From: Nannocystales bacterium | GTDB lineage: Bacteria; Myxococcota_A; Polyangia; Nannocystales; Nannocystaceae | DNA: 64,000 bases | NCBI GenBank assembly: GCA_050633305.1 | Contig: JBOEGF010000023.1 | Coordinates: 192,001-256,000 of the forward strand | Direction of reading: 5' to 3' | Part shown: piece after piece, positions 35,623 to 50,888 of the stretch | Position numbering within the stretch: the first letter of the stretch is position 1 | Layout: the number at the start of each line of letters is the position of its first letter | Position numbers and translations under genes: made by a program | Notes under the pieces: model-generated | Databases searched by the model: none | Seen by the model: only the letters and a program-made list of their open reading frames with translations | Told to the model about the DNA's origin: nothing

Positions 35623-36331
35623 CGTCGCCGCAGTCGGCTGGGGGTGCCGCGTGGGAGTCGAGGATGCTGAGCGGCGCGCCGCTGACGATGCGCCCCGGAT
35701 CCTGGGCGTACTGGGTCATCCGTCCCTCGATCACCGTAGGGGAGCCCCCCGAAGCAGCGATCGCCGCCGCGTCTTCGTTGGAGAGGAACGGGATCTCGAG
35801 CTCCATCGTGCCCTGGACCGGCGAGCCGTCGCCGTAGGTCGGGTCGATCGTCAGCGTGACCGGGTTGGTGTACTGGCACTGTCCAGCCGCGAACTGCCCA
35901 AACGCATCCTCGGGACACGCGCTTGCCGAGTCGACGTTGAGCCACAGAGCCGCGTACGCGGAACAGGTACTGCCCGTGCAGCTCCACGAGTGTTTGAACT
36001 CAAACCGCGTGACATCCAGGCACGGGTGCAGACAGGGGTTCATGTAGATCGGGAACGGCTCTCCGGCGGCCGTCTCCGTGACCGTGCAAACTTGCCCGCG
36101 GAAGAACGGGATGTCCTTCCCGGTGAAGTTGGCCTGCGCCGGCGACTCAGTCGCGTCGGTCGGGAGATCGACGAGTTCGCAGATGGCCTCGTCGGTGTTG
36201 CACATCTCTCCGCGCGGGCACGGCGACCCCTCAGAGCATTCCCCAGCGTCCACCGCCGGACCACAGCTTGCAGCAAGAAAGGCCGTCGACAGCAGGCCGG
36301 TGAGGATCCAGAGGCGTTTTTGGAGTTCCAT
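35585..36331 (-). CDS. Cys-rich lipoprotein
   Basis: MELQKRLWILTGLLSTAFLAASC lipobox and many Cys. Confidence 0.8.
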   Translation of the reverse strand: MELQKRLWILTGLLSTAFLAASCGPAVDAGECSEGSPCPRGEMCNTDEAICELVDLPTDATESPAQANFTGKDIPFFRGQVCTVTETAAGEPFPIYMNPCLHPCLDVTRFEFKHSWSCTGSTCSAYAALWLNVDSASACPEDAFGQFAAGQCQYTNPVTLTIDPTYGDGSPVQGTMELEIPFLSNEDAAAIAASGGSPTVIEGRMTQYAQDPGRIVSGAPLSILDSHAAPPADCGDDGSACDCFEVGF

Positions 36332-36541
36332 GTGCTGTTCTCCCGCTGCCCCGAGTGTACGCGAATCCACAAAAAGCTGCCGGTTTTCGCGCCCCAACGA
36401 TCCTTCATGGAGCATGCCGTCGGATCCTCACGGGTTTTCTTTTGCCCCCAAAACGACCCTGTGGCAGGGTCACTGAATATCCGGGTCGTGATCGAGCCGC
36501 CGTCTTCCTCGCGCGGCCAAACCTGGAGAAGGGTCCTACTA

Positions 36542-37276
36542 ATGCTCCGTAACAAGCTTTCCTTCATCCTTGCTTCCAGCCTCAGCCTTGCCTTCGTCGG
36601 TTGCGACGACGGCGACAGCGACGACACCGGCGCAGGCGCGACCGACTCCGCCGGCACCGACACGGCTGACACCGCCGACACGGCTGACACCGCCGACACG
36701 GCCGACACCGCGGATACCGCGGACACCGCCGACACCGCCGACACCGCCGACACCGCGGACACGGCCGACACCGCGGACACGGCCGACACCGCGGACACGG
36801 CCGACACCGACGACACGTCCGACGATAGCAGCACCACCGACGACACCTCCTCGGATCCCTGCGGAGGAGAATGCACCCCGGATCAAACCTGCCTGGGCGG
36901 CGTCTGCGTCGACGACGGCGGCGAGACCGAAGGCGAGACCGATACCGGAGCGGGCGAGTGCAGCGCAGCTGTCATGTTCCCCGCACCTGCATGTGGCGAG
37001 TGTGCTGAAGACGCTTGCTGCGATGGTCTGACCGGCTGCTTCGGTGACATCAACAAAGTCACCGAGCCCACCGCTTGCGGGCTGTTGAATGACTGCATCG
37101 GAGCCGAACTGGGGAACGCCGCATCGGAATTCAAGCCGTGCATTGCGCCCGCGACCGCGGCTGACGTTCAAGCATGTGCAGACGCAGCTTGCCCAGACAC
37201 CGCCTCGGAAACGGCCGTCTGGCTCGCGATGAACCAGTGCATCGCGATGAACTGCCAAGCGCAGTGCTCCGGCTAG
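36542..37276 (+). CDS. Cys-rich lipoprotein with (DTA)16 linker
   Basis: MLRNKLSFILASSLSLAFVGC, DTA repeats and a Cys-rich C-terminus. Confidence 0.88.
   Translation: MLRNKLSFILASSLSLAFVGCDDGDSDDTGAGATDSAGTDTADTADTADTADTADTADTADTADTADTADTADTADTADTADTADTADTDDTSDDSSTTDDTSSDPCGGECTPDQTCLGGVCVDDGGETEGETDTGAGECSAAVMFPAPACGECAEDACCDGLTGCFGDINKVTEPTACGLLNDCIGAELGNAASEFKPCIAPATAADVQACADAACPDTASETAVWLAMNQCIAMNCQAQCSG
36659..36802 (+). repeat. Coding 9-bp tandem repeat, 16 units
   Basis: GAYACSGCB x16, encoding Asp-Thr-Ala. Confidence 0.95.
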
Positions 37277-37303
37277 AGGCCACCGAGCGGAGAACCTTCG
37301 CGT

Positions 37304-37348
37304 AAGAGCAAGAGGGGTCGCTGAGTCCAGCGACCCCTCTTGCTTTTA
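37304..37348. terminator. Intrinsic terminator between convergent genes
   Basis: 17-bp perfect stem AGCAAGAGGGGTCGCTG-agtc-CAGCGACCCCTCTTGCT followed by TTT. Confidence 0.9.
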
Positions 37349-37423
37349 ACGACTCGTGTCCGAACGCGCCCTGATCCCTAAACCAGGATCAGGGCTCCAT
37401 CGAGACTTCGCCGGACAGTCGTT

Positions 37424-38506
37424 CTACTGCTCGACACAGTAGAACGACGGCCAAGAGCCGACCAAGCCTACGTCGCCCGTCCCCGTATCGCAGGTCGTCG
37501 TTGGCCCCCGAAGAAACTCGGTCGACGACTCGGAGTTCCCGAACGCGAGCGTCTGGCCGGACGCGTTCGACGACCAACCGTTGCAGGTGTTGTTCAACGC
37601 TGGCGTCCAGTCGTTGTTCAGCCCGGTCGGCCTCACGAATGTGAAGCAGAACACCCCGTTGGGAAAGTCTGGGATGCAAGGCTCCGCGACGGGGTTTGTC
37701 AGCGGCTCTGGAGCGCCGTCTCGGACGCCCAGCAAAGGCGTGGCGTCGGTCGTCCAGATCGGCGTCCCATCGACCCGGACGTAGGCCGTATACGGTGCCA
37801 GAGGCCAGTCGATCAGATCGTCCGCTGTATAGGGCGAGTTTGCGGTCGCCTGTCGGACGCCCGGAACCCCAAACAGAGCGCGGTGCCCGGGCTGGCACTG
37901 CCCGTCTGCGAGACCAACCGGGTTGGGCTGATAGTTGCCCCCATTTGTCGCGGAGCTGCCCCGAATCACCTTTTCCTCGATGACCGTCGAGCAGTCGGGA
38001 GCGCAAGCGCCGACCTCCAAGATGTTGTCCCCCTCCCCGTCGTCACAGAACTCATCGGGTCCGATGTTGCCGTCTCCGCAGACGTTGAGGTTGCAGTCCG
38101 GAAGACACCCCTGATCGAGCCCGTTGTTCTCGAGGCCGTCGTCGCACTCCTCGCCGGCGTCCACGTGTCCATCTCCGCAAAACGGGTCATCTCCGCCCGA
38201 CGTCGGATCCATGGTGTCGACCGTCGTCGGCCCACTCATTGTCGGGTTTTCGGTTGTCGGCTCATCCGTCGTTGGACTGGTGGTCGGCTCGCCGGTCGTT
38301 GTCCCACTCGTTGGGGTGACGGTGGTCATTCCTCCGGTCGGTTCGGCCGTAGTCACCGACGCGGTCCCTTCGCCCTCGGCCTCTGCGGTACTCCCCTCGG
38401 CCGCTGCATCCGTATCCGTGTCGATGTCGAGCCCACCATCGGGTGCAAAACACCCGGCGAAGATCAACGATGCGGCGGCGAACGAAAGCGATTGTTCTAG
38501 TCTCAT
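37424..38506 (-). CDS. Lipoprotein with myxobacterial Cys-rich repeats (DUF4215-like) and DUF1554-like domain
   Basis: FAGC lipobox, CGDGHVDAGEECDDG, ADGQC...DWPLAPYTAY...CNGWSS...FYCVEQ. Confidence 0.85.
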   Translation of the reverse strand: MRLEQSLSFAAASLIFAGCFAPDGGLDIDTDTDAAAEGSTAEAEGEGTASVTTAEPTGGMTTVTPTSGTTTGEPTTSPTTDEPTTENPTMSGPTTVDTMDPTSGGDDPFCGDGHVDAGEECDDGLENNGLDQGCLPDCNLNVCGDGNIGPDEFCDDGEGDNILEVGACAPDCSTVIEEKVIRGSSATNGGNYQPNPVGLADGQCQPGHRALFGVPGVRQATANSPYTADDLIDWPLAPYTAYVRVDGTPIWTTDATPLLGVRDGAPEPLTNPVAEPCIPDFPNGVFCFTFVRPTGLNNDWTPALNNTCNGWSSNASGQTLAFGNSESSTEFLRGPTTTCDTGTGDVGLVGSWPSFYCVEQ

Positions 38507-38670
38507 ATGCAACCCTGCCTCCGCAGGGTAGCGGCGGCGGTTGCGAGGGCCAACGGGTGCCCGGGTCGACGGACAGGGGGTGGCGGGTGTCGTGGCCACC
38601 TCAACTCCTGTTGCCAGGTGCCTGGACAGGCCCCGGGCGAAAAATGCCGTGATTCCCACGCCCGACGAGT

Positions 38671-38686
38671 TGGCACGCCGCTGGCA
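38671..38686 (+). promoter_or_regulatory. Sigma54-type promoter, copy 1
   Basis: TGGCACG-ccgc-TGGCA versus consensus TGGCACG-N4-TTGCW. Confidence 0.65.
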
Positions 38687-38696
38687 AACTTCGTTG

Positions 38697-38788
38697 GTCG
38701 TCCAGGCAACTGGGCAACCCGACTCCAATCCTCCAATCCGTTCTAGCTTCGGCCGGCACCTAATCCTGGGTGTCGGTCGAAGCTTTTT
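38697..38788 (+). ncRNA. Putative sRNA, paralog 1
   Basis: About 90% identical by hand alignment to 42754-42844. Has a 5' hairpin with GCAA loop, a C/U-rich linker, and a terminator stem plus T5. Confidence 0.65.
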
Positions 38789-41219
38789 GGTTCGTCGTAC
38801 GCGGCTTGCCGGACTTGGTTGCCGCGGCGAGGAGCTCGCCGGCCCACGACTCCAACACGTCCTGGCTCGCCGCGGCCACCAAACCGGCCTGGGTATACAG
38901 CTCTCGCGCTCGCGAGGCGGCGGCCTCGGCTTTTCTGCGCTCGTCGGTGCCCCTCGGGCAACGGATCGGGGGAGCGCCGCAGAGTGCGAGCGCGAGGCTT
39001 TCGTGCGCGGACCCGAGTTCGAGCGGGCCGGCACCGATCGAGCGATAGATGTCGATCGCATCCTCGGCAAAACCCCGCGCTTCGGAGAACCGGCCCTGAC
39101 CGATCGAGATTCGACTTCGCGCGGCGGCAGTTTCGGCGGTCGTCGAGTTCTTCCGCCCGAGGACCTCGAGTGCGAGCTCGTGCGCTCTGCGGGCAGCATC
39201 GTTGGCAAGCTTCCACTGCCCCAACGCTTCGTGGCTCTGAGCGATGTAGTTCAGCGTGCGAGCGACGGACGGATGCTCCGAACCCAACGCGGACTCCCGG
39301 ATCACCAGCGCCCGGTTTTGCTGACGTAGCGCCCCATCGTAGTCGCCCGCGTAGATCAGAGCGGTGCTGAGGTTCTCGCGGGCATGGGCAACTTCGGGAT
39401 GCTCCGGACCCCACGCGGCCTCGAAGCTCTGCACGCCCAACCGATACGACGCGATCGCTCCCTCGAGGTCACCGCGACGCCACTGGACGATGGCCCGGTT
39501 CTGCACGGCCATGGCGAACCTCGGGTGCTCGGTGCCCAAGGACAACTCGAGCAATCGAACCGCTTCGTCCAACGCCTCGGCCGCAGGCTCGACCGCTCCA
39601 TGGCGAAGGTGGGCAGCGCCGAGGTCCGCGAGCATCCGACCGGTTCGAGGGTCACCCGGGCCCCAGAGCTCGCGAGCCTGATGCAGCGCCAGCGACAGCG
39701 TCGCGACCGCCTGCTGCGAGTCACCGCGGAGAACCTCGATGTTGCCTTTCTGACCGAGAATCGCGACCTGTAGGGCCGCATCCGCATCGTCGATCTCAGC
39801 CTCTGAGATATGGCGCGCAGCCTCGTCCAGCGAGCCCAAGACTCGCGCGGTGCGTGATGCGGCAAGAGCCCATCGCGCCTGCGCCCCTCGACTCTCGACA
39901 CGGGAGCGGAGTGCTCGAGCGTGACGCAGCCAGATCTGCGCCCGTGCACCCCGTCGTAGCGCACAGAAAGCGTCGACGAGCGCCAATGCGGAGTCAAATT
40001 CGAGTTCGGGGCGTCCTTGGCTCCGGGCGATCGCGTACGCGTCCTCGAGATCGGACAACGCCGCCTCGTGGTCATCGAGTCGCGACAACAGACGCCCACG
40101 AAGTGCGAGACCCTCGGCAAGGCCGACCTGGTCCCCGAGTTTCTGCGCGGCCACCACCGCCTGCCGCGCGAGCACCTTGGCGTCCCGGACGGCCCCCGCG
40201 CCCACCTTCTGTCTCGACGCGGCGAGCAGCACAGACACCGACGGAGCAGCCCCGAGATCCGGCTTGGGCTCCGTCGCCGCACGTGCAGAGATGTCCGTCC
40301 CCGAGGGCCAAGCCAAAGCTCCCGCGAAGGCAGCCACCCCCCCGGCGACCCACCACCGGCCACGGGTCGGCGTCCGCTCCAGCGCGCGGAGTACGGCTTC
40401 CATTGTTCGGGGACGCTGCCGAGGCTCCTGCTCCACCCCGGCACGCAAGACCTTCCGCCACCTCCGAGGCACGGAGGCGAGCAACGCATCGAGCTCTTCG
40501 ACCGAGCAAGCGGGGCCATGACTTGGGACGGGCGCTCGCTGGCTGATGCATTCCAACACCGTCACGCAGAAGCCGAACACATCGGCACGCTCGTCGACGG
40601 TTTCCCCCGCGGCCTGCTCGGGCGCGACGTACCCCGGCGTACCGCCAGCCGCGGTGGAACTCGTGCCCGTCTCTTCGGTCCGCGACGTTGGAGCTGCCAA
40701 CGCCTTGCCGAGCCCGAAGTCCAACACCACGGGCCAACCACCGGGGTCGACGATGATGTTCGCGGGTTTGATGTCGCGATGCAGGACGCCCGCTTCGTGT
40801 GCAGCGGCGATCCCCCGTCCGGCCCGCAACAGCACCTCCATGCGCGCGTGGTTCGTCAACGAGCTGCGGGTCCACTGGCCCACCGTCAGCCCCTCGAGCA
40901 ACGGCATCACGACAAACACGCGACCCTCGAACACGCCAACATCGAACACCCGGACGATGTTCGGGTGGTCCAGTTCCGCCAACGTTCGCGCCTCCTCGCG
41001 CAGCCTCCGCTCCTGCTCCGCCCCAACCCGGCGCAAGACTTTGATCGCCACCGCACGATCGAGCCGAGGGTCGTAGCCGCGGTAGACCAACCCCATGCCC
41101 CCACGGCCGATCTGGCCCTGTAGCTCGTAGGGACCGATCCGTGTCGGCGTGCCGCCGAGCAGCCCGTGCCGAACCTGCTCTTTCCAACGACGCGCCTCGA
41201 AGTCGTCGCCCCCGGTCAC
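38760..41219 (-). CDS. Ser/Thr protein kinase with TM and TPR repeats
   Basis: GRGGMGLVY, VAIK, HRDIKPAN, DFG, GTPGYVAPE, and LGxEHP-type TPRs. Confidence 0.95.
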   Translation of the reverse strand: MTGGDDFEARRWKEQVRHGLLGGTPTRIGPYELQGQIGRGGMGLVYRGYDPRLDRAVAIKVLRRVGAEQERRLREEARTLAELDHPNIVRVFDVGVFEGRVFVVMPLLEGLTVGQWTRSSLTNHARMEVLLRAGRGIAAAHEAGVLHRDIKPANIIVDPGGWPVVLDFGLGKALAAPTSRTEETGTSSTAAGGTPGYVAPEQAAGETVDERADVFGFCVTVLECISQRAPVPSHGPACSVEELDALLASVPRRWRKVLRAGVEQEPRQRPRTMEAVLRALERTPTRGRWWVAGGVAAFAGALAWPSGTDISARAATEPKPDLGAAPSVSVLLAASRQKVGAGAVRDAKVLARQAVVAAQKLGDQVGLAEGLALRGRLLSRLDDHEAALSDLEDAYAIARSQGRPELEFDSALALVDAFCALRRGARAQIWLRHARALRSRVESRGAQARWALAASRTARVLGSLDEAARHISEAEIDDADAALQVAILGQKGNIEVLRGDSQQAVATLSLALHQARELWGPGDPRTGRMLADLGAAHLRHGAVEPAAEALDEAVRLLELSLGTEHPRFAMAVQNRAIVQWRRGDLEGAIASYRLGVQSFEAAWGPEHPEVAHARENLSTALIYAGDYDGALRQQNRALVIRESALGSEHPSVARTLNYIAQSHEALGQWKLANDAARRAHELALEVLGRKNSTTAETAAARSRISIGQGRFSEARGFAEDAIDIYRSIGAGPLELGSAHESLALALCGAPPIRCPRGTDERRKAEAAASRARELYTQAGLVAAASQDVLESWAGELLAAATKSGKPRTTNQKASTDTQD

Positions 41220-41303
41220 GGTGCGCAGAGTACGGCCGCGACCCGCAAAAGAAACACGAAAAAAATGTGATCGATCGATGTCCTCGCGCAGTGAACGAGG
41301 GTG

Positions 41304-41582
41304 ATGAACAAGACCACCGTAGTCATCACAGCGTTCGCGTCGCTCCTAGGCCTCGCCGCCGCGTGCGGCGTCCCCTGCGACATGCTGGAGGACAACATCT
41401 GCGAGGAGTTGGGCGAAGAAGACTGCAAAGCGTGGAAGGCCTCAGGCGCTCCCGAAGCATTGCGTTCCGGCCGACGCGCGACGAAGGGATGCCTCAACGC
41501 GCTGTCGGGACCAGCCTTCGACGCCCACGTGCTCGGCGCGCGGGCGCAAGCCGAGGCGCACAGGCTGACCGAGGGCTCGTGA
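41304..41582 (+). CDS. Small Cys-containing lipoprotein
   Basis: MNKTTVVITAFASLLGLAAAC lipobox with GAGGG upstream. Confidence 0.7.
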   Translation: MNKTTVVITAFASLLGLAAACGVPCDMLEDNICEELGEEDCKAWKASGAPEALRSGRRATKGCLNALSGPAFDAHVLGARAQAEAHRLTEGS

Positions 41583-41594
41583 TAGCCTGCGAGG

Positions 41595-42197
41595 GTGAGC
41601 TCTGATGTCGAGATGCTCGCAGCGTGGCGCCAGGGAGACCGCGGCGCTGCGGATGCACTGCTCGAGCGGCACTTTGCGTCGTTGTGCCGCTTCTTCCGCA
41701 ACAAGGTCGACATCGGGGTGGAAGACCTCATCCAGCGAACACTGCTCACGTGCGTGGAGCGTCGCGATCGGATCCCCGACGGCTGGTGTTTTCGGACGTT
41801 CCTGTTCGTGGTCGCCCGCGACCAGCTCTACATGCACTACCGCGCCCAGCGGCGTAGCTTCAATGCCACGCAAACATCAGTGGCTGACCTCAGCCCCTCG
41901 CCGAGCACCATCGTCGCCAAACGCCAGGAACACGCGCTGGTTCTCCAAGCGCTGCGCGAGCTCCCGATGCAGACCCAGGTCCTGCTCGAGCTGCGGTACT
42001 GGGAAGGCATGACGGGGCCGCAGCTCGCCAGGATCCTCAGCATCTCCGAGGGGACGGTTCGAAGCCGTCTTCGCCTCGCCAAGGAGCGCCTCTTTGGCTC
42101 GCTGTCGAAAGCAGCGCGCATCCGCGGACTCGTCGTCGACGCGGACAACGACTTCGAGGCTTGGGCTCGAGATGTCCAGGCCACCATCGCTGGTTGA
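41595..42197 (+). CDS. ECF sigma factor
   Basis: LAAWRQGD...FFRNKV...EDLIQRT, and region 4 LELRYWEG...GTVRSRLRLAK. Confidence 0.92.
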   Translation: MSSDVEMLAAWRQGDRGAADALLERHFASLCRFFRNKVDIGVEDLIQRTLLTCVERRDRIPDGWCFRTFLFVVARDQLYMHYRAQRRSFNATQTSVADLSPSPSTIVAKRQEHALVLQALRELPMQTQVLLELRYWEGMTGPQLARILSISEGTVRSRLRLAKERLFGSLSKAARIRGLVVDADNDFEAWARDVQATIAG

Positions 42198-42218
42198 GCC
42201 GGTGTATTCGTCGGCCCG

Positions 42219-42455
42219 CTACGCCGCAACCCGGAGTCGGTACTCGCTGTTGTCCGTCTCGACGACAAGCTCTTCGTCCGAGTGTTCAAAGCGACGAACT
42301 ACGCCGGTCTGTACCACCCCGTGTTCACCCACGATCACGAGGCTGAGCCCAACTTCGGGCCTTCCCAGAACGTAGACCGGGCCGGCCGGCATCTCGGGTT
42401 GCGTCCTGGGTTTGGGGGTGAGGGGACGACGCTCCAGGGTGTAGACCTCGTTCAT
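42219..42455 (-). CDS. Small hypothetical protein
   Basis: 78 aa with a plausible beta-rich sequence (VETDNSEYRL). Confidence 0.55.
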   Translation of the reverse strand: MNEVYTLERRPLTPKPRTQPEMPAGPVYVLGRPEVGLSLVIVGEHGVVQTGVVRRFEHSDEELVVETDNSEYRLRVAA

Positions 42456-42727
42456 CAGGATGCTCCGCGGCTACGCGGTGCACATGTCGATCCACGGCGA
42501 CGACGCGCGAGAGCGCCCCGACTCCGGGCCACAACGGGTCGGAGATGCCGATCGATCGGCCCAGGGCAGGATGTTCGGACCCGCGCACAGTCATCCTGAT
42601 GGCGAAACACCGCCATCAGGATGACCCCGGCTGCTCGCGTAGCCACTGGCGGCTGGTCTCGCAGCCACTTCAACCGTAAGCAGCCCAGCGGCCCGCTAAA
42701 AACGCAATGATCCCCAGTGTAGGACTC

Positions 42728-42743
42728 TGGCACGCAGTTTGTA
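42728..42743 (+). promoter_or_regulatory. Sigma54-type promoter, copy 2
   Basis: TGGCACG-cagt-TTGTA. Confidence 0.6.
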
Positions 42744-42753
42744 ACTGCGGGGA

Positions 42754-42844
42754 GTGTCCAGGCACTGGGCAACCCGACTCCAAATCCTCCGATCCGTTCA
42801 AGTCTTCGGCCGACACTCAATCCCGGGTGTCGGTCGAAGCATTT
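42754..42844 (+). ncRNA. Putative sRNA, paralog 2
   Basis: Same architecture as 38697-38788. Stem CTTCGGCCGACAC...GTGTCGGTCGAAG with a weaker U tail. Confidence 0.65.
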
Positions 42845-42919
42845 AAGCCGTCAGTGTTTCGGTAGAGCCCAATAGCCTTCGTCGCGTAACGCTTGCCGGC
42901 GAGCCGGTACAGCCACGCC

Positions 42920-43438
42920 GTGTCCGAACGACGATGGTGCGCTGGCGTCCGTGCTCGCTTCGAGCAGTGGCAGATCGCCAGAATTCGAACGGTCTACCGT
43001 CGCGGCACTGCCGTCGAGGCGGCCAGGGGTCCGGCCTTCGAGGCGATGGTCGACGAGATGCGGCGCGCACTCGACACCGCGTCGCCTCGCGCACGGCAGC
43101 GTGCAGATGAAGACGTCCTGCACGCGGTCTTCTTCGCGCCATGGGGTCCAGCCATTCTTCACGCGGCTGCCCGATGGTGGCCGAAGCGCACTGCCAGCGT
43201 TCTCACCTACGCCTCACCGACCGCGCTGAGGTTCTTGGTCGGCGACCTCCACGTCTCGTCGCCCCGCGTCAACCGAGTTCCACGCTGCGCATTCCGGGCC
43301 AAGGGCGGCACGCGCCTGTGTGAACAGGTCTGTCGCAGACCTTCGGAAGCCTACACTGCCAAGCAGGGGTTTCCAGTCCTGCTGGAACCCGACGTCGATG
43401 GGCCCGGATGCACGTGGACATGGGGAACGTCGTCGTGA
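42920..43438 (+). CDS. D27 beta-carotene-isomerase-like (DUF4033-like) protein
   Basis: SPTALRFLVG...VPRCAF...LCEQVCRRPSE...GFPVLLEPDVDGPGCTWTWG recalls D27 (WLVGP...C..L...C..C..PTQ...G.PL.M.P.....SC...FG). Start 42893 or 42920. Confidence 0.6.
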   Translation: MSERRWCAGVRARFEQWQIARIRTVYRRGTAVEAARGPAFEAMVDEMRRALDTASPRARQRADEDVLHAVFFAPWGPAILHAAARWWPKRTASVLTYASPTALRFLVGDLHVSSPRVNRVPRCAFRAKGGTRLCEQVCRRPSEAYTAKQGFPVLLEPDVDGPGCTWTWGTSS

Positions 43439-45726
43439 AGCGCCGGATCATCGTGGTGGGTGCGGGCGTCGCCGGGCTCACCTGTGCGCACGAATTGTCC
43501 CGTACCGCCCAAGCCCGGAACACGTTCTCCGTCCGGGTCTTCGAGATGGGGCACAAGGTTGGAGGGCGACTCGCCAGCGCTCACAACCCGCAGCGTTGGG
43601 GTCGCAACGAAGAACACGGGCTGCACGTTTGGTTCGGCTGGTACGACAACACGTTTCGTCTCGTGGACGAGGTCTGGCGCGACTGGAAGCGCCCCGAGGA
43701 CTGTCCATGGGTGACAATCTGGGACGGACTGCGGCCGATCTGGATCAGCGAACACGCGCTGGAGGCCGACGGAGACCTGACAATTCACCGAGTCCATCAC
43801 CCACGCAACAGCGACACCCCAGGCCACACCTCCAGGCGCTCGACGCTGGGTCGACTCTCAACGTGGCTCGACCTCCCTCGCTCGCTGCTCCGAACCTGGA
43901 CAGCGCTCACCCACAAGACACATCACGACAACCCCACGCCCCGCAGCCAGCTCGCACGGACGCTGTGGCCCCATCCGGACGTGTTCTCGTTTGATCGTCT
44001 ACGTCGACGCTTGTTTCCCTCAAGTTCGCACGCTCGGCCGCACACAGCACGCGCCGCGGCGCCACGACTCCATCGTGTTCTGCGTCGACTCCATCCGCGG
44101 TTGCGAGTGGCCGCCTTGGCCGCGGCGGGGACACACACCGAGCGGATCGAGTTGGCGCGAGTCCTCGATCTCGCGCTCTCCGTGGCGCGCGTCCTGACCA
44201 GCCCGCGCCACGGTATCTACAACGACGGCGACTTCGACCGTGTCTCGAAGTGGGAGCTGCGAGACCTGCTCCGGGAACACGGCGCCGACGAGGACTCCCT
44301 CACCAACAGTCGGCTGCTGGAGTGCCTCTACGACATCCCCTTTGCGTTCGAGGGTGGAGATCGCAGCCGACCTGTTCTCGAAGCCGGGACCGCGCTCCGA
44401 TTCACGTACCGGTTGTTCGCGGACTACAAACACGCCCTGGCCTTCCTGCTCAAGGCAGGCGCTGGGGAGACTCTGATCGCGCCGCTTCTCGACCTGGTTC
44501 GCCAACGCGGTGTTGAACTCGAGCCGTTCCACCGCTTGAAGAGCGTGCAGCTGGACCCGACCCAGCGTTTCGTCGAGCGCCTGGTCTTCGCCCGCGCGGC
44601 TCGAACGCTCGGCTGCTATGAACCATTGGTCACCGAGGGGGGCTTCCGCCGGTTTCGCGCAGCGCCGGATTGGTCGCAGCTCGAAGATGGGGACCGGCTT
44701 CGTGCCCGGGGCGTCGAGTTCTACTCGCGGTTTGGCGACCGCGGAGAGACCCAGGAGGTGGTGTTGCAGCGCGGGGTGGACTTCGACGATGTCGTCCTCG
44801 CGCTGCCCCTGGGGAGCATCGTTCCCGACGGCGACGGCCACAGTCCGGTGAGTGCTTGGCTGGCCGCGAAACCACACGTGCGGGCGTGCTTGGATCGACT
44901 GCATCTCGTCCCGACTATCGCTGCGCAGCTGTGGCTCGACGAGTCGGTCGACACGCTGGGTTGTCGTGACCGCGCAGTCGCGACCTGGGGCGAGACGTAC
45001 TCCGTCGCATGCGACATGAGCGACGTCATCGACCACGAAGCGTGGGGACCCAATGGCCCTCGCAGCAGCATCTACCTGTGCGGAGCGTGGCCCATGCGCT
45101 CACCCGCCGCCGCCTCGACCGATGCAAACGCTCTTCGTGACGACGAGGGGGACGCCCGTGCGCTGCTCGAGGAACAGCTCGCCGACCACGGGCCCTCCCT
45201 GTTTCGGCACCCGCCAGCGCTCCATACGCCGCAGGGCTCTTCAGACCCGTGGGAGGCCCAGTACGTCCGGGTCAACGTCGAGCCGTGGGACCTCGCCGAC
45301 CTCCCCCTCCCCGGTGCCGACGCCGTGCGTCTCGAAGCAAACGGGAGCGGGCTCGACAACCTGGCGCTCGCCGGTTCTTGGGTTCGCACCCCCGTGAACT
45401 CCACCAGCGTCGAGGCGGCCGTCTGCAGTGGCCTCGCTGCCGCCCGCGCACTCGGTGCGAACTGCCGCCCGATCCTCTCGGAAGACCTCTTCCGGATCCC
45501 CAACCCGAACGTCCTCCTCCCCGGACCCTCGCACGACGATGCCCGACCATCCCACGACCCCCGAAGTCCCATGGCCCCCGACGTCCTCAGTGTCCGCGAG
45601 AACCCTGAGGCTCTCCGACGGGCAGTCGCTCGAGCTCGACCCGAGCCATCTGTGGTGGCTCGACGACGGCGACGTCGTCGTCCACGCCGCATCGCGCCCG
45701 GTGGAACTGTGGGCGGCACCGCGTAG
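43435..45726 (+). CDS. FAD/NAD(P)-binding oxidoreductase 1 (PDS/HpnE-like)
   Basis: GAGVAG, EEHGLHVWFGWYDN, AGAGETLIAPL, NLALAGSW...SVEAAVCSG. GTGA coupling to the previous gene. Confidence 0.88.
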   Translation: MKRRIIVVGAGVAGLTCAHELSRTAQARNTFSVRVFEMGHKVGGRLASAHNPQRWGRNEEHGLHVWFGWYDNTFRLVDEVWRDWKRPEDCPWVTIWDGLRPIWISEHALEADGDLTIHRVHHPRNSDTPGHTSRRSTLGRLSTWLDLPRSLLRTWTALTHKTHHDNPTPRSQLARTLWPHPDVFSFDRLRRRLFPSSSHARPHTARAAAPRLHRVLRRLHPRLRVAALAAAGTHTERIELARVLDLALSVARVLTSPRHGIYNDGDFDRVSKWELRDLLREHGADEDSLTNSRLLECLYDIPFAFEGGDRSRPVLEAGTALRFTYRLFADYKHALAFLLKAGAGETLIAPLLDLVRQRGVELEPFHRLKSVQLDPTQRFVERLVFARAARTLGCYEPLVTEGGFRRFRAAPDWSQLEDGDRLRARGVEFYSRFGDRGETQEVVLQRGVDFDDVVLALPLGSIVPDGDGHSPVSAWLAAKPHVRACLDRLHLVPTIAAQLWLDESVDTLGCRDRAVATWGETYSVACDMSDVIDHEAWGPNGPRSSIYLCGAWPMRSPAAASTDANALRDDEGDARALLEEQLADHGPSLFRHPPALHTPQGSSDPWEAQYVRVNVEPWDLADLPLPGADAVRLEANGSGLDNLALAGSWVRTPVNSTSVEAAVCSGLAAARALGANCRPILSEDLFRIPNPNVLLPGPSHDDARPSHDPRSPMAPDVLSVRENPEALRRAVARARPEPSVVARRRRRRRPRRIAPGGTVGGTA

Positions 45727-46705
45727 CCTCGACCTCGCGGGAAGCCTTCGAGGGTCTCCCTCCGCCCGCTTCATCGCCAGCGGCCCCTGCACCATCATCG
45801 GCGTCCCTACCGAGGCCATCTCCGAGCGCGACAAGGTCGCGGCGTTGGCCGAGGAAACGCAACGTCTTTGGTCCCGCGTCGAGGCCGATGCCCGGCGCGA
45901 TGACGACACCTTCATGGATTGGGCACGACCGATTCCAGGGCCATGGTGGTTTGAGCAAGCAAAGGCCGCGGTGGTGGTCATGCAAGGCGACCCGGCCCGA
46001 TTGCGAGCCTCCATGCCACGAGGCGTCCGCCCGCTTCCGGGAACGGGCGGGCGGTATCTGCTCGCGGTGACACGCTTCGATGGCGTGGGGTCGGAGGACC
46101 GGTCCGACCGCCAGCGTTTTTCCTATCACGAGGTCACCCCGTTCCTTCCCGTCTGGTCGGGAATCCGAGGGCCCGCAACCTTCATTCCCGAGCTGTACCC
46201 CGACGCATGGATGGCGGTGCTCTTGGGGCGGGAGATCCTGGGCTTCCCCAAACGGACGGCCCGCGTCGCGTTGCGTGAACGCGGCGGTGAGCTGATCGTC
46301 GGAGGTCGACTCGCGCTCAAGATGCGCTGGAGCGAGGCTTGCCCTACGGTGCCGAATGCTGCCGTCGGAGCCCTCGGCCGCGCGCTCGTCCCCTTCGAGC
46401 TGACCGAGCGGGTGCTTCGAGCGGTCGTCCCAGATCGGCCGAAGTTCTCGGCGCTCGTTCACAAGCGCATCGGAGCCTCGAACACCGCCGGGCAAACGCT
46501 GGCCATCGACGAGGTCGTCCGTGTCCCCGTGCAACTCGACCCGATCCACAAGGCCGAGAGTCTGCAGGGCCTTCAGGTCGAGGTGGGCGACGGCCCCGGG
46601 ATTCTCCACGGCAAGGCCATCGCAGGCTGGCGCCTCCACACCGGCTTCCGCTTCGGGGTGGGGCTCAAAGAGCGCTCCATTCGGACCCCGCGGGTAAACC
46701 CATGA
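45539..46705 (+). CDS. Acetoacetate decarboxylase-family protein with possible degenerate cNMP-binding N-domain
   Basis: YHEVTPF, FIPELYPD...LGREILGFPK, plus an N-terminal LWWLDDGDVVV...SARFIASGPC segment. Confidence 0.8.
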   Translation: MPDHPTTPEVPWPPTSSVSARTLRLSDGQSLELDPSHLWWLDDGDVVVHAASRPVELWAAPRSLDLAGSLRGSPSARFIASGPCTIIGVPTEAISERDKVAALAEETQRLWSRVEADARRDDDTFMDWARPIPGPWWFEQAKAAVVVMQGDPARLRASMPRGVRPLPGTGGRYLLAVTRFDGVGSEDRSDRQRFSYHEVTPFLPVWSGIRGPATFIPELYPDAWMAVLLGREILGFPKRTARVALRERGGELIVGGRLALKMRWSEACPTVPNAAVGALGRALVPFELTERVLRAVVPDRPKFSALVHKRIGASNTAGQTLAIDEVVRVPVQLDPIHKAESLQGLQVEVGDGPGILHGKAIAGWRLHTGFRFGVGLKERSIRTPRVNP

Positions 46706-48465
46706 AACGGAAGCGGGTTCTGGTCCTCGGGGGCGGTTGCGCTGGGGTCGCCGCCGCCTGGGCGCTCTCGTCCACACCGCACTCGCGTCGACGTTTCGAG
46801 GTCACGCTGTTGCAGTCGGGGTGGCGACTGGGAGGCAAGGGTGCCACGGGCCGCGACCCGACACGCGGACACGCGGTGCTCGAGCACGGTCTTCATCTTT
46901 GGCTTGGCTTCTATCGAAACGCGTTCGCCATGGTCCGCGATCTGTACGATCACTGGAACGGGCCCAGCGACGGTCCACAGCGAAGCCTGGAGTCGGCATT
47001 CACTCCGGCCTACGACGTGTCACTCCGGGGAGCAGCTCGCGGAGCGTCGCAGCAGTGGACACTGAACTTTCCCCAGCTCCCCGGACGGCCTTGGGATCCG
47101 AGCCCGGGCACATCGTGGCTGGCGACATCGAAGCGGTGGCTTCAGCAACTCCCGAGCCTGTTGGGAGGGATTCCGAAACAGGACCGCCCGCTGCTGGTCT
47201 CGCTCGGGCGGACCGTCGCGCGTGGTCTTGCACGGGAGTGGGCGCGCTGGGGAGACCACGCGTGGGACCAAATGGACCGCGAGGACCTTCGCACCTGGCT
47301 TGCTCGACACGGGGCGACACGGGAGGTCACCGATAGCCCGCCCGTGGTGGGCCTGTACGACCTTGGGTTCGCATACCCCCACGGACGTCAGAGTGTGCGA
47401 GATGGACGGGCTGCTGCGGGCGTGGCGGTGCGGGTGTTGCTGCGCATGTTCGCGGACTACCGCGGAGCGCCACTGTGGCGAATGTCCGCCGGCATGGGGG
47501 ACACCGTGTTCTCGCCCGCGTGGGACGTGCTTCGAGCCCGTGGAGTCACGCTGTCCTTGTTCCACCACGTCTTGGAGGTCCGTGCAGAGCACGGCAAGGT
47601 CTCCAAGGTCCGAGTCGGCATTCAAGCGTCAGGGTTCGAGGACTACGACCCGTTGATCGACGTCGGACCTATCCGGGCCTGGCCCGAGCGTCCCATCGAG
47701 AGCCGCCTCACCTCCGTGGCACCCGGCGCGTTGGATGGTGATGGGTCCCAGATCCCCGATGATGTGGAGCTCCACCACGGTCGAGACTTCGACGCCGTCG
47801 TGATGGCCATTCCTGCGGCCGCGCAGCGGCACTGCGCCATCGGCCTGGCCAAAGCGAATCCCCGCTACGGAGCGATGCTGGAGGCCTGTCACACGGTCCC
47901 CACGGTCTCCGGTCAGGTTTGGATGTCGCGCAGCGCGGACACCTTGGGTCCTGACGCCGAGCCAACCGTGAGCACTGGGCATCACGGACTGTTCCGGACC
48001 CACGCCAACATGACCGACGTCCTGAAGGCGGAAGCGTGGCGAGAGTCTCCTCGTCACCTCGCCTACCTTTGCGGCGTGGCGCCGCCCGACGTGCTCGCCG
48101 CCAGCGGACGGGACGAAGCCCACGCTCGGCTTCGCGAACTCGCCGAGGCATGGTTTCGCCACGAGGCGCCCGCCTCCTGGCCAGGATCAGCGACCCCCTC
48201 CGGTCATTTCGACGAGGGCTCGCTGCACGTGGACCCCGGTGGTCGGCGCGAAGACGCCATCTACCTGCGAGCCAACACCGAAGCTTGGGAACGCTACGTC
48301 CTCTCCCTTCCCGGCACCACAGCCCACCGCCTGGCCCCCGACGACTCCGGCTTCGAGAACCTGTTCCTCGCGGGCGACTGGACCCGCAACGAGATCAACG
48401 GTGGAAGCGTCGAGGCGGCGGTCTCGTCGGGGATGTCGGCCGCCCGAGCAATCGAGGCCCAGTAA
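46702..48465 (+). CDS. FAD/NAD(P)-binding oxidoreductase 2 (paralog)
   Basis: GGGCAG, GWRLGGKGATGR, EHGLHLWLGFYRNAF, AGMGDTVFSP, NLFLAGDWT...VEAAVSSG. ATGA coupling. Confidence 0.9.
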   Translation: MKRKRVLVLGGGCAGVAAAWALSSTPHSRRRFEVTLLQSGWRLGGKGATGRDPTRGHAVLEHGLHLWLGFYRNAFAMVRDLYDHWNGPSDGPQRSLESAFTPAYDVSLRGAARGASQQWTLNFPQLPGRPWDPSPGTSWLATSKRWLQQLPSLLGGIPKQDRPLLVSLGRTVARGLAREWARWGDHAWDQMDREDLRTWLARHGATREVTDSPPVVGLYDLGFAYPHGRQSVRDGRAAAGVAVRVLLRMFADYRGAPLWRMSAGMGDTVFSPAWDVLRARGVTLSLFHHVLEVRAEHGKVSKVRVGIQASGFEDYDPLIDVGPIRAWPERPIESRLTSVAPGALDGDGSQIPDDVELHHGRDFDAVVMAIPAAAQRHCAIGLAKANPRYGAMLEACHTVPTVSGQVWMSRSADTLGPDAEPTVSTGHHGLFRTHANMTDVLKAEAWRESPRHLAYLCGVAPPDVLAASGRDEAHARLRELAEAWFRHEAPASWPGSATPSGHFDEGSLHVDPGGRREDAIYLRANTEAWERYVLSLPGTTAHRLAPDDSGFENLFLAGDWTRNEINGGSVEAAVSSGMSAARAIEAQ

Positions 48466-49586
48466 TGAGCGAGATGGAAGTTGCCATCGTCGGTGGTGGG
48501 CCGGCGGGTCTCACCACCGCCCTGTCGATCGCGAGGCACGCTCCCTCCCTCCGCGACCGAATCCTCGTGCTCGAGCGTGCAACGTATCCGCGAGAGAAGA
48601 TCTGCGCAGGCGCTGTGTCGGGACGCGCCTGGAGCACCCTGGTCTCACTGGGTGCTCGTCCTCGAGTCCCCGCCGTCCCGGTCGGGGGCTTTGACCTCGA
48701 AGGACACAGGCGCACTGCCCGCGCGCGGATTGGGCGGGCGGGGTTCGTGATCCGCCGAGCCGAGTTCGACGCCGACCTCGCCCAACGCGTGGCGGATGCG
48801 GGCGTTCGGGTCCAGGACGGCACGCGGGTCAAGGAACTCGCCGTGACCGAACGAGGCGCGGTGCTGGAGACCTCTCTCGGAACCCTGCGGTCGCGATTCG
48901 TCGTCGGAGCGGGCGGCGTCGGGTGCATGGTGCGGCGGCACCTCGGTTTGGGGATCGGCCGGCTGCGCGCTCATGTTGTCGAAGCCGACACCGACCCCAG
49001 CAGGTTCGATGCGCAAGACGGGTCCCTGCGGTTCGATGGGGGACGCGACGAGCTCACCGGCTACGTCTGGGACTTCCCGACGATCGTCGCGGGCCGCCTT
49101 CGGGTCTGTCGCGGGGTCTATCAGCTTCGAGACATGAACGCTCCCGAGCACCTGCGCGGACCCGACGTCACACAGATGCTTCGACGGCACCTCGAAGACC
49201 GAGGCGTCGTCGCGGACGGAGGACGGTTCAAGCGATTCGCCGAACGGGGGTATGAGCCCGGACTCGCAATCGCCTCTCGCCGCTGCATGCTCGTCGGCGA
49301 GTCTGCAGGAGTCGATCCGGTGACGGGCGAGGGCATTGGGCCCTCGATCGAAGCAGGGTTGCTCGCAGGTCGTTTCCTGGGCGCGGCGGTCAGCAAGCGG
49401 CTCGACAGCGTCGAGGGCTGGAGTCGCCGACTTCGCCGCTCGGCGGTGGGCCTGGACCTAGCCGCGCGCAGCTTGGTGGCGACGCATTTGCTGTTGAGGC
49501 GACGCCGGATCCTGGATCGGCTGCTGACTTCGCAGAACTATGCCCTGACCGTAGGGGCCCACTACTTCGCGGGGCGAGCGTTCTGA
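48465..49586 (+). CDS. Geranylgeranyl-reductase-like FAD oxidoreductase
   Basis: GGGPAG, YPREKICAG, RRAEFD, GYVWDFP, GESAGVDPVTGEGI. TAATG coupling. Confidence 0.88.
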   Translation: MSEMEVAIVGGGPAGLTTALSIARHAPSLRDRILVLERATYPREKICAGAVSGRAWSTLVSLGARPRVPAVPVGGFDLEGHRRTARARIGRAGFVIRRAEFDADLAQRVADAGVRVQDGTRVKELAVTERGAVLETSLGTLRSRFVVGAGGVGCMVRRHLGLGIGRLRAHVVEADTDPSRFDAQDGSLRFDGGRDELTGYVWDFPTIVAGRLRVCRGVYQLRDMNAPEHLRGPDVTQMLRRHLEDRGVVADGGRFKRFAERGYEPGLAIASRRCMLVGESAGVDPVTGEGIGPSIEAGLLAGRFLGAAVSKRLDSVEGWSRRLRRSAVGLDLAARSLVATHLLLRRRRILDRLLTSQNYALTVGAHYFAGRAF

Positions 49587-49643
49587 GCGGGGCCACCCCC
49601 CAGTTGTCCCTCGCCGCAGCGGGCAGCCCCGGCGCGAGCCGGC

Positions 49644-50888
49644 TCAGGGTTTGGGCTCGAGTACCAGCTCGAAACGCCCGTGGTCGAACGGGGTCCCCGG
49701 TGCAGACTCGACGTGGACGAGTCGCTCGCGCATGCCTTGCTTGTCCAACTCCAGCGCCCGGTGGTGACAGAATGGATTGTTGCCCGGCTTGCCAAAGATG
49801 GGCTCGCTCGTCGCTGTGCAGCCTCCCATGCAAGGTTCGGCGTAGTAACAATCTCCGCAGAAGCCCCAGAGGTCGTTGCGAGTCCGCTGCTCGATGCGCC
49901 GCATCTGGGGCGCACGTTCCCAGATCTTCCTCAGGCCGTGCTCTCGCCATGACCCACCCGTGTTCTCCGCTCCGCCCAGCGACGGGCAGGATTTTATCGA
50001 GCCATCGGGCTCGATCCCCAGACCGCTGAGCCCCGCTTGGCATCCTGGGTAGTACGCTTTGGCGCTCATCGCCCTGCGCAAGGCGGTTTCCAGCGGACCA
50101 AAGTAGCCGAGGTTGTTGCCGGGCCAAACGACGACGCCGTGTGCTCGGCAACGCTCGAGCATGCGCTCGACCTCTTCGAACACGTCCAACATCATGTACG
50201 GCTGCAGGACGAGGTCCGGATGGTCCGCGGCCCCTCCATGGGGGATCGTCAAGAACATCTGCCAGCTCGCGATCCCTGCCTCACCCAGACGATCCGCAAG
50301 CGGAACGATTTGGCTGAGCGTACGGCGATTGATCTGGGTGTTGGCGCAGGCGGTCGCCCCCGCACGCTTGACGTGGGCGATGCCCTCCAGTGCGCGTGCC
50401 CAGCTTCCCTCGCGGCGTCGTAGTGCGTCGTGAGTCTCTTCGAGCCCGTCGATCGAGAACGAGACGAGTTGGAGCCCAGCCTCGACCGCGGCCTCGATGT
50501 GTTGCTGCGTGAAGCCGTAGCCACCCGTGGTCATGCTCGCCTTCATGCCGCGCTCTCGGATCGCTCGAATGACCAGCAAGAAGTCGGGGCGGAGATAGGC
50601 CTCGCCACCGATCAAGATGACTTCGCCGACCCCCATTTCGGCGAGCTCCTCGACCAAGCGCAGCGACTCGTCGGTGCTCAGTTCGTTCCGAAGCGTCTTG
50701 CCCGAGCGGGGACCGCATGAGACGCACGCCTGATCGCACGCTTGCGTGAACGCCCAGACCGCGAGCGTTGGCGTGGGTCGGCGCGGCATCGGACCTTCGA
50801 GGAACGCTCGGTTCTTCGAAGGCGGCAATGCATCGACGATCGGGAGGCTCTGCCGAACCCGCTCGAGCCTTTCGTTGCGCTGTGCCAA
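49644..50888 (-). CDS. Radical SAM/SPASM maturase, splicease (PlpX)-like
   Basis: CDQACVSC, GGEAYLR, PGNNLGYFGP, CQAG...GIEPDGSIKSCPSL, LWGFCGDCYYAEPCMGGC, GKPGNNPFCHHRAL, PFDHGRF. Start uncertain. Confidence 0.88.
   Translation of the reverse strand: MAQRNERLERVRQSLPIVDALPPSKNRAFLEGPMPRRPTPTLAVWAFTQACDQACVSCGPRSGKTLRNELSTDESLRLVEELAEMGVGEVILIGGEAYLRPDFLLVIRAIRERGMKASMTTGGYGFTQQHIEAAVEAGLQLVSFSIDGLEETHDALRRREGSWARALEGIAHVKRAGATACANTQINRRTLSQIVPLADRLGEAGIASWQMFLTIPHGGAADHPDLVLQPYMMLDVFEEVERMLERCRAHGVVVWPGNNLGYFGPLETALRRAMSAKAYYPGCQAGLSGLGIEPDGSIKSCPSLGGAENTGGSWREHGLRKIWERAPQMRRIEQRTRNDLWGFCGDCYYAEPCMGGCTATSEPIFGKPGNNPFCHHRALELDKQGMRERLVHVESAPGTPFDHGRFELVLEPKP

Follow-up and report, generated by a model that had tools for sequence, protein, structure and literature searches.

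A Multicopy Family of Predicted Sigma-54-Dependent Small RNAs in Uncultured Nannocystaceae

Introduction

Few myxobacterial small RNAs (sRNAs) have been characterized, and none was found for the Nannocystaceae in the literature searched, in which subscription journals were largely outside coverage. The myxobacterial sRNA Pxr blocks fruiting-body development and is processed to a short form. In the available parts of the reports on it, Pxr is described as an RNA with three stems and a C-rich SL1 loop that lies behind pxrK/pxrR (PMC5684412, PMC10217877), and it is reported there to be confined to the Cystobacterineae (PMC5568312).

In a 64,000-nucleotide stretch of the genome of an uncultured Nannocystaceae bacterium, hereafter called the window, two similar segments about 4 kb apart were proposed, in a preliminary description made from the letters of the window, to be copies of a new sigma-54-dependent sRNA. 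This locus raises the question whether the segments are sRNA genes, whether they belong to a known family, and in which way such an RNA might act.

Results

Two Similar Non-coding Copies in the Source Genome

The two segments (38700–38783 and 42756–42840 of the window) had been described as differing at 9 of about 86 columns; a recount showed exactly 9 differences over 86 aligned columns, and a BLASTn comparison of copies 1 and 2 gave an E-value of 6e-24 across 90 columns. A search for more copies with BLASTn and nhmmer showed a copy number of two in the source genome (G000; 11.0 Mb, 65.9% GC, 92% complete), the next match having an E-value of 0.64, and 17 whole copies were found in the genus (see below). 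Based on fold, spacing and covariation, copy 1 was predicted to give an RNA of about 92 nt with deduced ends (38697–38789, plus strand), and copy 2 an RNA of about 93 nt with a weak U tail (42754–42846, plus strand). The copies are non-coding, as their lengths differ by non-multiples of three and neither of the two in the window contains an ATG. A 262-aa ORF on the plus strand that overlaps copy 1, antisense to a kinase gene, was taken as incidental.

Copy 1 is flanked by a divergent DUF1554 lipoprotein-like gene and by this convergent Ser/Thr kinase-TPR gene, the final 10 codons of which overlap the 3′ hairpin of the copy (38760–38789). The kinase mRNA would be antisense to the 3′ third of the copy 1 sRNA; this overlap was not kept in relatives. 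Copy 2 lies 4 kb beyond copy 1 and is divergent from a 78-aa gene. On the 3′ side of copy 2 (43408–50888), genes for two flavin oxidoreductases, an acetoacetate-decarboxylase-like domain and D27-like and radical-SAM-like proteins were found, and the 5′ part of this cluster is also located behind a copy in two other genomes of the genus (G001 and G004). A near-perfect 21-bp hairpin between convergent genes (37303–37348) is probably a bidirectional terminator.

Promoter and Upstream Elements

Both copies are preceded by a −24/−12 element of the sigma-54 type on the plus strand, TGGCAC-N5-TGGCA for copy 1 (38671–38686) and TGGCAC-N5-TTGTA for copy 2 (42728–42743). The sequence TGGCAYG-N4-YBGYA was detected upstream of all 17 whole genus copies, with TGGCAYG invariant and with TTGTA (11 copies), TGGCA (3) or TCGCA (3) as the −12 element. 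In all 15 copies examined, the first hairpin begins 28–29 nt past the TGG of the promoter, so that the RNA structure opens at approximately +3 of a sigma-54 transcript; this fixed spacing agrees with the previous observation that the similarity between the copies begins near the predicted transcript start. The source genome contains rpoN, and no sigma-70-like site was found within 38400–43000.

An AT-rich box, AAAAN3-4RTGATT, is present about 17–31 nt upstream of the promoter in all 17 genus copies (38641–38655 for copy 1 and, by alignment of the copies, 42699–42713 for copy 2; both plus strand). From its position and its match, on the opposite strand, to seven of nine positions of the IHF consensus, we take the box to be a putative IHF site. 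Three IHF/HU-family genes were detected in the source genome. In addition, an enhancer palindrome, GGC-N10-GCCA, is located upstream of the promoter in 16 of the 17 copies. For copy 1 it reads GTGGC-N10-GCCAC at 38580–38599, with a second half-site to 38617 (38580–38617, plus strand), and scored 8.7 and 4.7 with a weight matrix trained outside the genus. For copy 2 there are two sites (42627–42668, plus strand) with matrix scores of 16.1 and 4.2, and its enhancer was the top match among the 103 sigma-54-like sites of the genome. The enhancer sites and the IHF-like box are additional to the features described previously. Together with the −24/−12 element they make up the classical arrangement of a sigma-54 promoter that depends on an enhancer.

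RNA Structure and Covariation

Folding of the plus strand of both copies bore out the layout proposed earlier, i.e., a short hairpin with a GCAA loop, about 29 unpaired nucleotides and a long 3′ hairpin. In copy 1 these correspond to a 5′ hairpin of 6 bp (38700–38715), a C-rich linker with repeated UCC units (38716–38744) and a 3′ hairpin of 18 pairs followed by a T run, predicted to be an intrinsic terminator (38745–38789), all on the plus strand. The core of the linker, UCCUCCRAUCCGUUC (38729–38743, plus strand), is presumed to be the pairing region. Folding z scores were −6.2 and −5.0 for copies 1 and 2 on the plus strand versus −1.6 and −1.0 on the minus strand.

When 15 of the 17 copies were aligned to the covariance model R1 (see below), 99.1% of cells were paired and 8 of 22 pairs were changed on both sides, values that come from an alignment fitted to the model and from related copies that are not independent. 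For the 5′ hairpin, 100% of cells were paired and three of six pairs were changed on both sides; for the 3′ hairpin, the corresponding values were 98.8% and 5 of 16. None of 500 shuffles reached the covariation of the genus, slid structures paired at 26–44%, and RNAalifold on a plain MAFFT alignment recovered identical helices, in which 7 of 22 pairs had changes on both sides. Consensus folding and covariation thus confirmed that substitutions in the stems keep pairing. The linker was nearly invariant and the most conserved part of the genus alignment (mean column identity overall 75%), and the core 15-mer was identical in a copy from another genus (G086). Conservation that is highest in the linker while the stems vary is the behavior expected of a seed.

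The copies had also been described as ending at a hairpin plus a U tract. The hairpin was present in both, but a full U tract only in copy 1, and a terminator scan called copy 1 and not copy 2. Among the 17 genus copies, 14 end in AUUU.

Distribution within the Family

A strong DNA match was found in all six other genomes of the genus. The model R1, built from 13 copies and run on 72 family genomes, detected copies in each of the seven genus genomes, one to four per genome; 17 were whole, and another was truncated at the end of a contig (G000, 2; G001, 2 plus the truncated one; G002, 2; G003, 3; G004, 3; G005, 1; G006, 4). A 21-nt core pattern searched over the genome collection gave seven loci, assigned to uncultured Nannocystaceae, Myxococcota or an unclassified bacterium.

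These counts bear on whether the segments are non-functional, i.e., a duplicated promoter-terminator cassette, a repeat or MITE, or simply the terminator of a convergent gene. The 3′ hairpin can serve the convergent gene, and the end of the kinase gene falls within that of copy 1; besides, the copies shift between gene neighborhoods, and downstream genes differ even between orthologous copies. However, there are only two copies in the source genome and at most four in relatives, and all 17 whole genus copies carry the promoter, so that a REP/MITE repeat was rejected and the spread that would have spoken against an sRNA was not seen. Furthermore, the folding is strand-asymmetric, and both the linker and the 5′ hairpin are conserved although neither is needed by a terminator. 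Diverged members in four more genera, described next, also retain enhancer, promoter and layout. A non-functional origin is accordingly considered very unlikely.

A weak R1 match in G086 (E-value 0.06) was found to carry the enhancer and a promoter with TTGTA. It has hairpins at the 5′ and 3′ sides, the 3′ one being long, and its 15-nt core is identical. DNA and pattern searches starting from G086 gave ten diverged loci outside the genus: three in g10 (G086, G087, G080; 3 of 11 genomes), five in g15 (G063, G064, G065, G066, G020; five of six genomes), one in g13 (G018) and one in g7 (G012), the last split over two contig ends and with neighbors as in g10. Covariation was also seen in the 3′ stem of this group, where pairing reached 97.9% and both sides had changed in 6 of 16 pairs. 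Cross-group model scores between the genus copies and the diverged group were low, and a joint automatic alignment gave no consensus structure. The two groups are nevertheless likely to be homologous, judged by the shared enhancer, the unusual −12 element TTGTA/TTGAA, the layout and the G086 core. Altogether, a member was present in 17 of 72 family genomes and in 5 of 17 genera. None was found in the remaining genera with R1 and further searches, the filters of which lose weak matches, and in a 150-genome sample of the class only three weak matches, all without the promoter, were found outside the family.

Several candidates were discarded. Of 25 loci with a 21-nt enhancer pattern, the three examined outside the genus were coding or lacked the RNA; a loose promoter-plus-core pattern gave chance matches over the genome collection; and matches to the core 15-mer in G060 and G066 (C19) had neither promoter nor hairpins. 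Weak matches to a further model, R2, in G071, G243, G217 and G284 had no upstream sigma-54 promoter and, like one in G248 (E-value 0.5), were left uncounted. A hairpin in G010 (L415:1501–1604, minus strand; 32.6 bits), with a C-rich loop like that of the diverged group and no clear sigma-54 promoter, is possibly a decayed copy.

The 78-aa Neighbor

The 78-aa gene divergent from copy 2 (42219–42455, minus strand) belongs to no known family and adjoins a copy in five of the seven genus genomes, which shows linkage only. Its product has 26 homologs and a weaker family-wide paralog, was modeled as all-beta, and gave weak PH/PTB-like fold matches (best Z 4.8). It was also considered as an Sm/Hfq-like chaperone, a reading that gained no support (Foldseek gave no match at E ≤ 0.001; Atlas matches were below 0.9). 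Such adjacency, like the overlap of copy 1 with the 3′ end of the kinase gene, could point to a cis-antisense RNA or a type I antitoxin acting on a neighbor, either the convergent gene or the 78-aa gene. Against this, downstream genes are not the same at orthologous copies, the 78-aa protein has no membrane helix, its gene is located apart from the RNA gene in g10 and has no strong match in two of the seven RNA-holding genus genomes, and no 12-nt complement to the linker was found near it. An action in cis is therefore highly improbable.

Comparison with Known sRNAs

As the preliminary description had supposed, no known Rfam family was recognized, there being no meaningful match in 36000–45000 at E-values up to 10. 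A close parallel in design was Qrr1–5 of Vibrio, which, in the available part of the report, are homologous, unlinked sRNA genes about 80% identical to each other, each with a sigma-54 promoter under LuxO; the multicopy sRNA described here, with its own sigma-54 promoters, closely parallels Qrr1–4 (PMC2632942). The features of a Qrr-like RNA were found here: a conserved non-coding fold ending in a terminator (the U tail weak in 14 of 17 copies), a −24/−12 element whose spacing to the 5′ end of the RNA is constant, upstream enhancer sites, and rpoN in the genome. However, Qrr requires Hfq, and host and activator site are different. Hfq was not found in the 92% complete source genome by a search that was positive in 5 of 14 controls; this result does not rest on the LSM search, which misses E. 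coli. Given this and the lack of an Rfam sequence match, membership in the Qrr family proper was rejected.

C-rich motifs complementary to the Shine–Dalgarno (SD) sequence, as in the linker, are also described, in the parts of the sources available, for RsaE/RoxS (unpaired UCCC) and for cuckoo RNAs (CCUCCUCCC loops) (PMC2790875, PMC4615179). The motif found here differs in being UCCUCCRAUCCGUUC, in its location in a linker (in this genus) and in its sigma-54 control, and no Rfam match to either was obtained. Cuckoo RNAs are defined in the same source by two to four adjacent hairpins with a CCUCCUCCC loop (PMC4615179), a layout different from that of the present RNA.

Pxr shares with the present RNA a myxobacterial host, a sigma-54 promoter, a C-rich unpaired segment and a long 3′ stem, and its hosts lack Hfq and in some species carry paralogs, as far as the available text of the sources goes (PMC5684412, PMC5568312). 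However, the RNA described here has two stems and a C-rich linker instead of three stems and a C-rich SL1 loop, another enhancer sequence, no adjacent two-component pair and a host from a different myxobacterial family. Twelve pxr loci were retrieved with a published primer, and the three that were tested against the Rfam model RF01812 all scored 127–129 bits (gathering score 80 bits). The same model gave no match at E ≤ 10 on the two copies and none at E ≤ 1 on 13 member loci, and in a genome search nothing above the cut-off in G000, G086 and G066, while both Pxr-holding genomes were positive. Thus, by the Rfam model, the sRNA falls outside the Pxr family, and the previous caution about homology was right.

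A deeply diverged homolog of Pxr, rewired to another activator, is a separate question of origin and would be compatible with the reading preferred below. Both RNAs appear sigma-54-driven, are about 90–165 nt long and combine a C-rich unpaired part with a long 3′ stem, and, as in Pxr, the first hairpin of several diverged members has a C-rich loop. The stem of copy 1 and Pxr SL3 share CGGCACC/GGUGUCGG including the same G.U (local score 29; p 0.017 versus shuffles), which is above all 253 terminator-like controls, and R2, built without Pxr, gave SL3 13.9–19.4 bits, close to the 9.7–21.5 of genus copies and for the most part higher than the background, of which the best value was 15.7 in about 155 kb. 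This resemblance is weak and partial: it is seen in copy 1 and G066 and not in most members, only two of nine members were in the top 2% of control hairpins while two ranked 243 of 253, copy 2 gave p 0.33, R1 on SL3 gave E-values of 0.09–0.5, and the two halves of a hairpin are not independent evidence. The first loop is GCAA in the genus, and C-rich only in some diverged members. In addition to the negative result of RF01812 on the 13 member loci, there is no SL2 equivalent, and no pxrK/pxrR-like pair, enhancer-binding protein (EBP) or kinase gene was recognized beside the copies (15 annotated loci and the window). Moreover, the DNA upstream of pxr lacks the GGC-N10-GCCA enhancer, and a search of three Pxr-holding genomes for the enhancer-promoter pattern gave no match in any of them. 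A common origin with Pxr is therefore regarded as doubtful.

Linker Composition and Search for Targets

Across 22 members, unpaired positions contained 46% C and 8.7% G, versus 31 and 21% in 600 intergenic controls, and each RNA had 6–29 UCC/CCC triplets and 0–2 GGA. In other genera the linker sequence is poorly kept, and the C-rich part is found largely in hairpin loops. An unpaired UCCC motif blocks ribosome binding in RsaE, which is independent of Hfq (PMC2790875), and Hfq-free contacts with mRNAs close to the SD are described for the M. xanthus RNAs Pxr and MXnc1 (10.1101/2025.09.11.675593), each according to the available parts of these sources.

No target search gave a significant result, and all relied on gene calls from a simple in-house gene caller. 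Complements to the linker were not enriched in 5847 ATG leaders (379 7-mers seen, 394 expected), a duplex ranking of 9010 leaders showed no clear outlier, and a pattern probe in five genomes, with 30 of 62 sites examined, revealed no shared target. The top individual site, which covers 13 nt across the ribosome-binding site of a lipoprotein gene of the Thiol_cytolysin family, was near chance expectation; among orthologs it was 12–13 nt in two of six, 6–7 nt in three and lost in one. As no target was found, the base-pairing translational regulator of the preliminary description is retained as a proposal.

The lack of a target in leader, duplex and cross-genome searches would also suit a decoy, in which the UCC/AUCC units would titrate a protein that binds C-rich RNA, or would act as a sponge for a GGA-repeat RNA (such as a Csr-type sRNA), with no pairing to mRNA. 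From genus to genus the short repeats differ in number and in whether they lie in the linker or in loops, multiple copies suit titration, and CsrA is present in the genome. With at most two GGA per RNA in 22 members, however, the RNA cannot itself be a decoy of the CsrB/RsmY type, which was rejected; csrA adjoins fliW, which encodes a protein antagonist of CsrA; and the best 40 windows of a scan for GGA-dense intergenic RNAs contained no obvious partner. An exact 15-nt core kept between two genera is also more than a short protein motif needs. A decoy thus seems unlikely, and pairing to mRNAs is preferred. The csrA-fliW locus (L304; G000 C32:88793–91450), beside a fliA-like sigma factor gene and a MinD/FlhG-like gene, is a flagellar-type regulatory remnant in a myxobacterium.

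Genes Sharing the Enhancer

The enhancer-promoter pattern of the sRNA also precedes protein genes in relatives, which encode a hydrophobic protein of about 50 aa and several lipoproteins. When a weight matrix derived from 20 loci of other genera or families was applied to the 180 genes of the source genome with a sigma-54-like site, four lipoprotein genes ranked at the top with 22.3, 20.2, 18.3 and 17.0 bits, the next gene having 12.8. They encode a papain-like protease with a P domain, a somatomedin-B protein, a PLD-like protein and a transglutaminase-elicitor/PPC protein. By the same matrix, copy 2 scored 16.1 and copy 1 a modest 8.7. From these shared sites we infer that one activator may switch on secreted lipoproteins and sRNA copies together. 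The gene for this activator was not found beside any copy examined (15 annotated loci and the window), the nearest gene of the GAFTGA type being about 33 kb away, and a similarity search with the PxrR C-terminus (best 39%) led to no named candidate among the roughly 30 enhancer-binding proteins of the genome.

Enhancer-linked lipoprotein genes were located at C10:264244, C20:22633, C43:70600, C27:235083 and C19:99719 in G000 and at L260, L355 and L374. They often bear GK[AF]D after the signal peptide (three of the five listed in G000 versus 44 of 9038 genes), and the association of enhancer and lipoproteins extends to other families of the class. The conserved protein of about 50 aa, with a hydrophobic N-terminus and no Pfam match, is found under the sRNA enhancer in g4, g13 and g15 (L266:1624–1773, L270, L284, L287, L365, L366, L369, L371); in g4 its gene was present under the enhancer and the sRNA was not found. 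A second enhancer type, a tandem TGGCCC-N6-GGGCCA, was observed ahead of sigma-54 promoters in g4 and g10 (L274, L296, L278, L264, L265, L291, L294, L295, L299), with one site in G000 (C18:945357). The N-termini encoded behind it, compared by eye, presumably correspond to recA, radC, recQ and Uma2/transposase-like genes, and a sigma-54-dependent DNA-damage regulon is possible.

Discussion

Sequence comparison establishes the family, its promoter architecture, its structure and the enhancer that it shares with protein genes. The promoter, the copies and the covariation strongly support the sigma-54-dependent sRNA family first proposed, and we are highly confident that the locus is a real sigma-54 sRNA gene. 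The family is very likely a previously undescribed one of small regulatory RNAs, multicopy in uncultured myxobacteria. If the gene is real, its RNA can reasonably be expected to act by pairing to mRNAs, and probably blocks the translation of other genes. The reading that we favor, and hold to be fairly probable, is that of an Hfq-independent, Qrr-like multicopy sRNA that pairs with G-rich ribosome-binding sites.

Transcription, the role of IHF, pairing and the physiological setting are what we infer from these comparisons, as follows. The locus would encode a trans-acting regulatory RNA of about 92 nt from a duplicated family in which each copy has its own promoter. An enhancer-binding protein would occupy the GGC-N10-GCCA sites, which lie about 70–110 nt ahead of the −24 element; the DNA would be bent by an IHF-like protein, and sigma-54 polymerase would transcribe the RNA, while the same enhancer would activate several secreted lipoprotein genes. 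The two hairpins may shield the ends of the RNA and leave the G-poor UCC-repeat linker exposed, which could pair without Hfq to G-rich ribosome-binding regions of mRNAs and block their translation. The RNA would thereby be the repressing arm of the regulon of the activator, probably linked to secretion or extracellular digestion.

Although the family appears to be new, its kind, a sigma-54-driven, multicopy sRNA with an anti-SD motif, is already known from Vibrio and Myxococcus. It comes with a model, a promoter architecture and a set of secreted enzymes predicted to be co-regulated, from a lineage where the search for Hfq was negative, and the model, promoter and predicted regulon make it directly testable. 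It bears on the action of sRNAs without Hfq and on the origin of Pxr. We consider it improbable that Pxr and the present family go back to a single ancient C-rich sRNA of myxobacteria. If they did, Pxr would not have arisen recently within a single suborder, and in the Nannocystaceae the RNA would have come under a different sigma-54 activator, which also drives genes for secreted hydrolytic lipoproteins, and would have increased to as many as four copies. The Nannocystaceae sRNA would then act post-transcriptionally to switch these bacteria between feeding and a different life stage.
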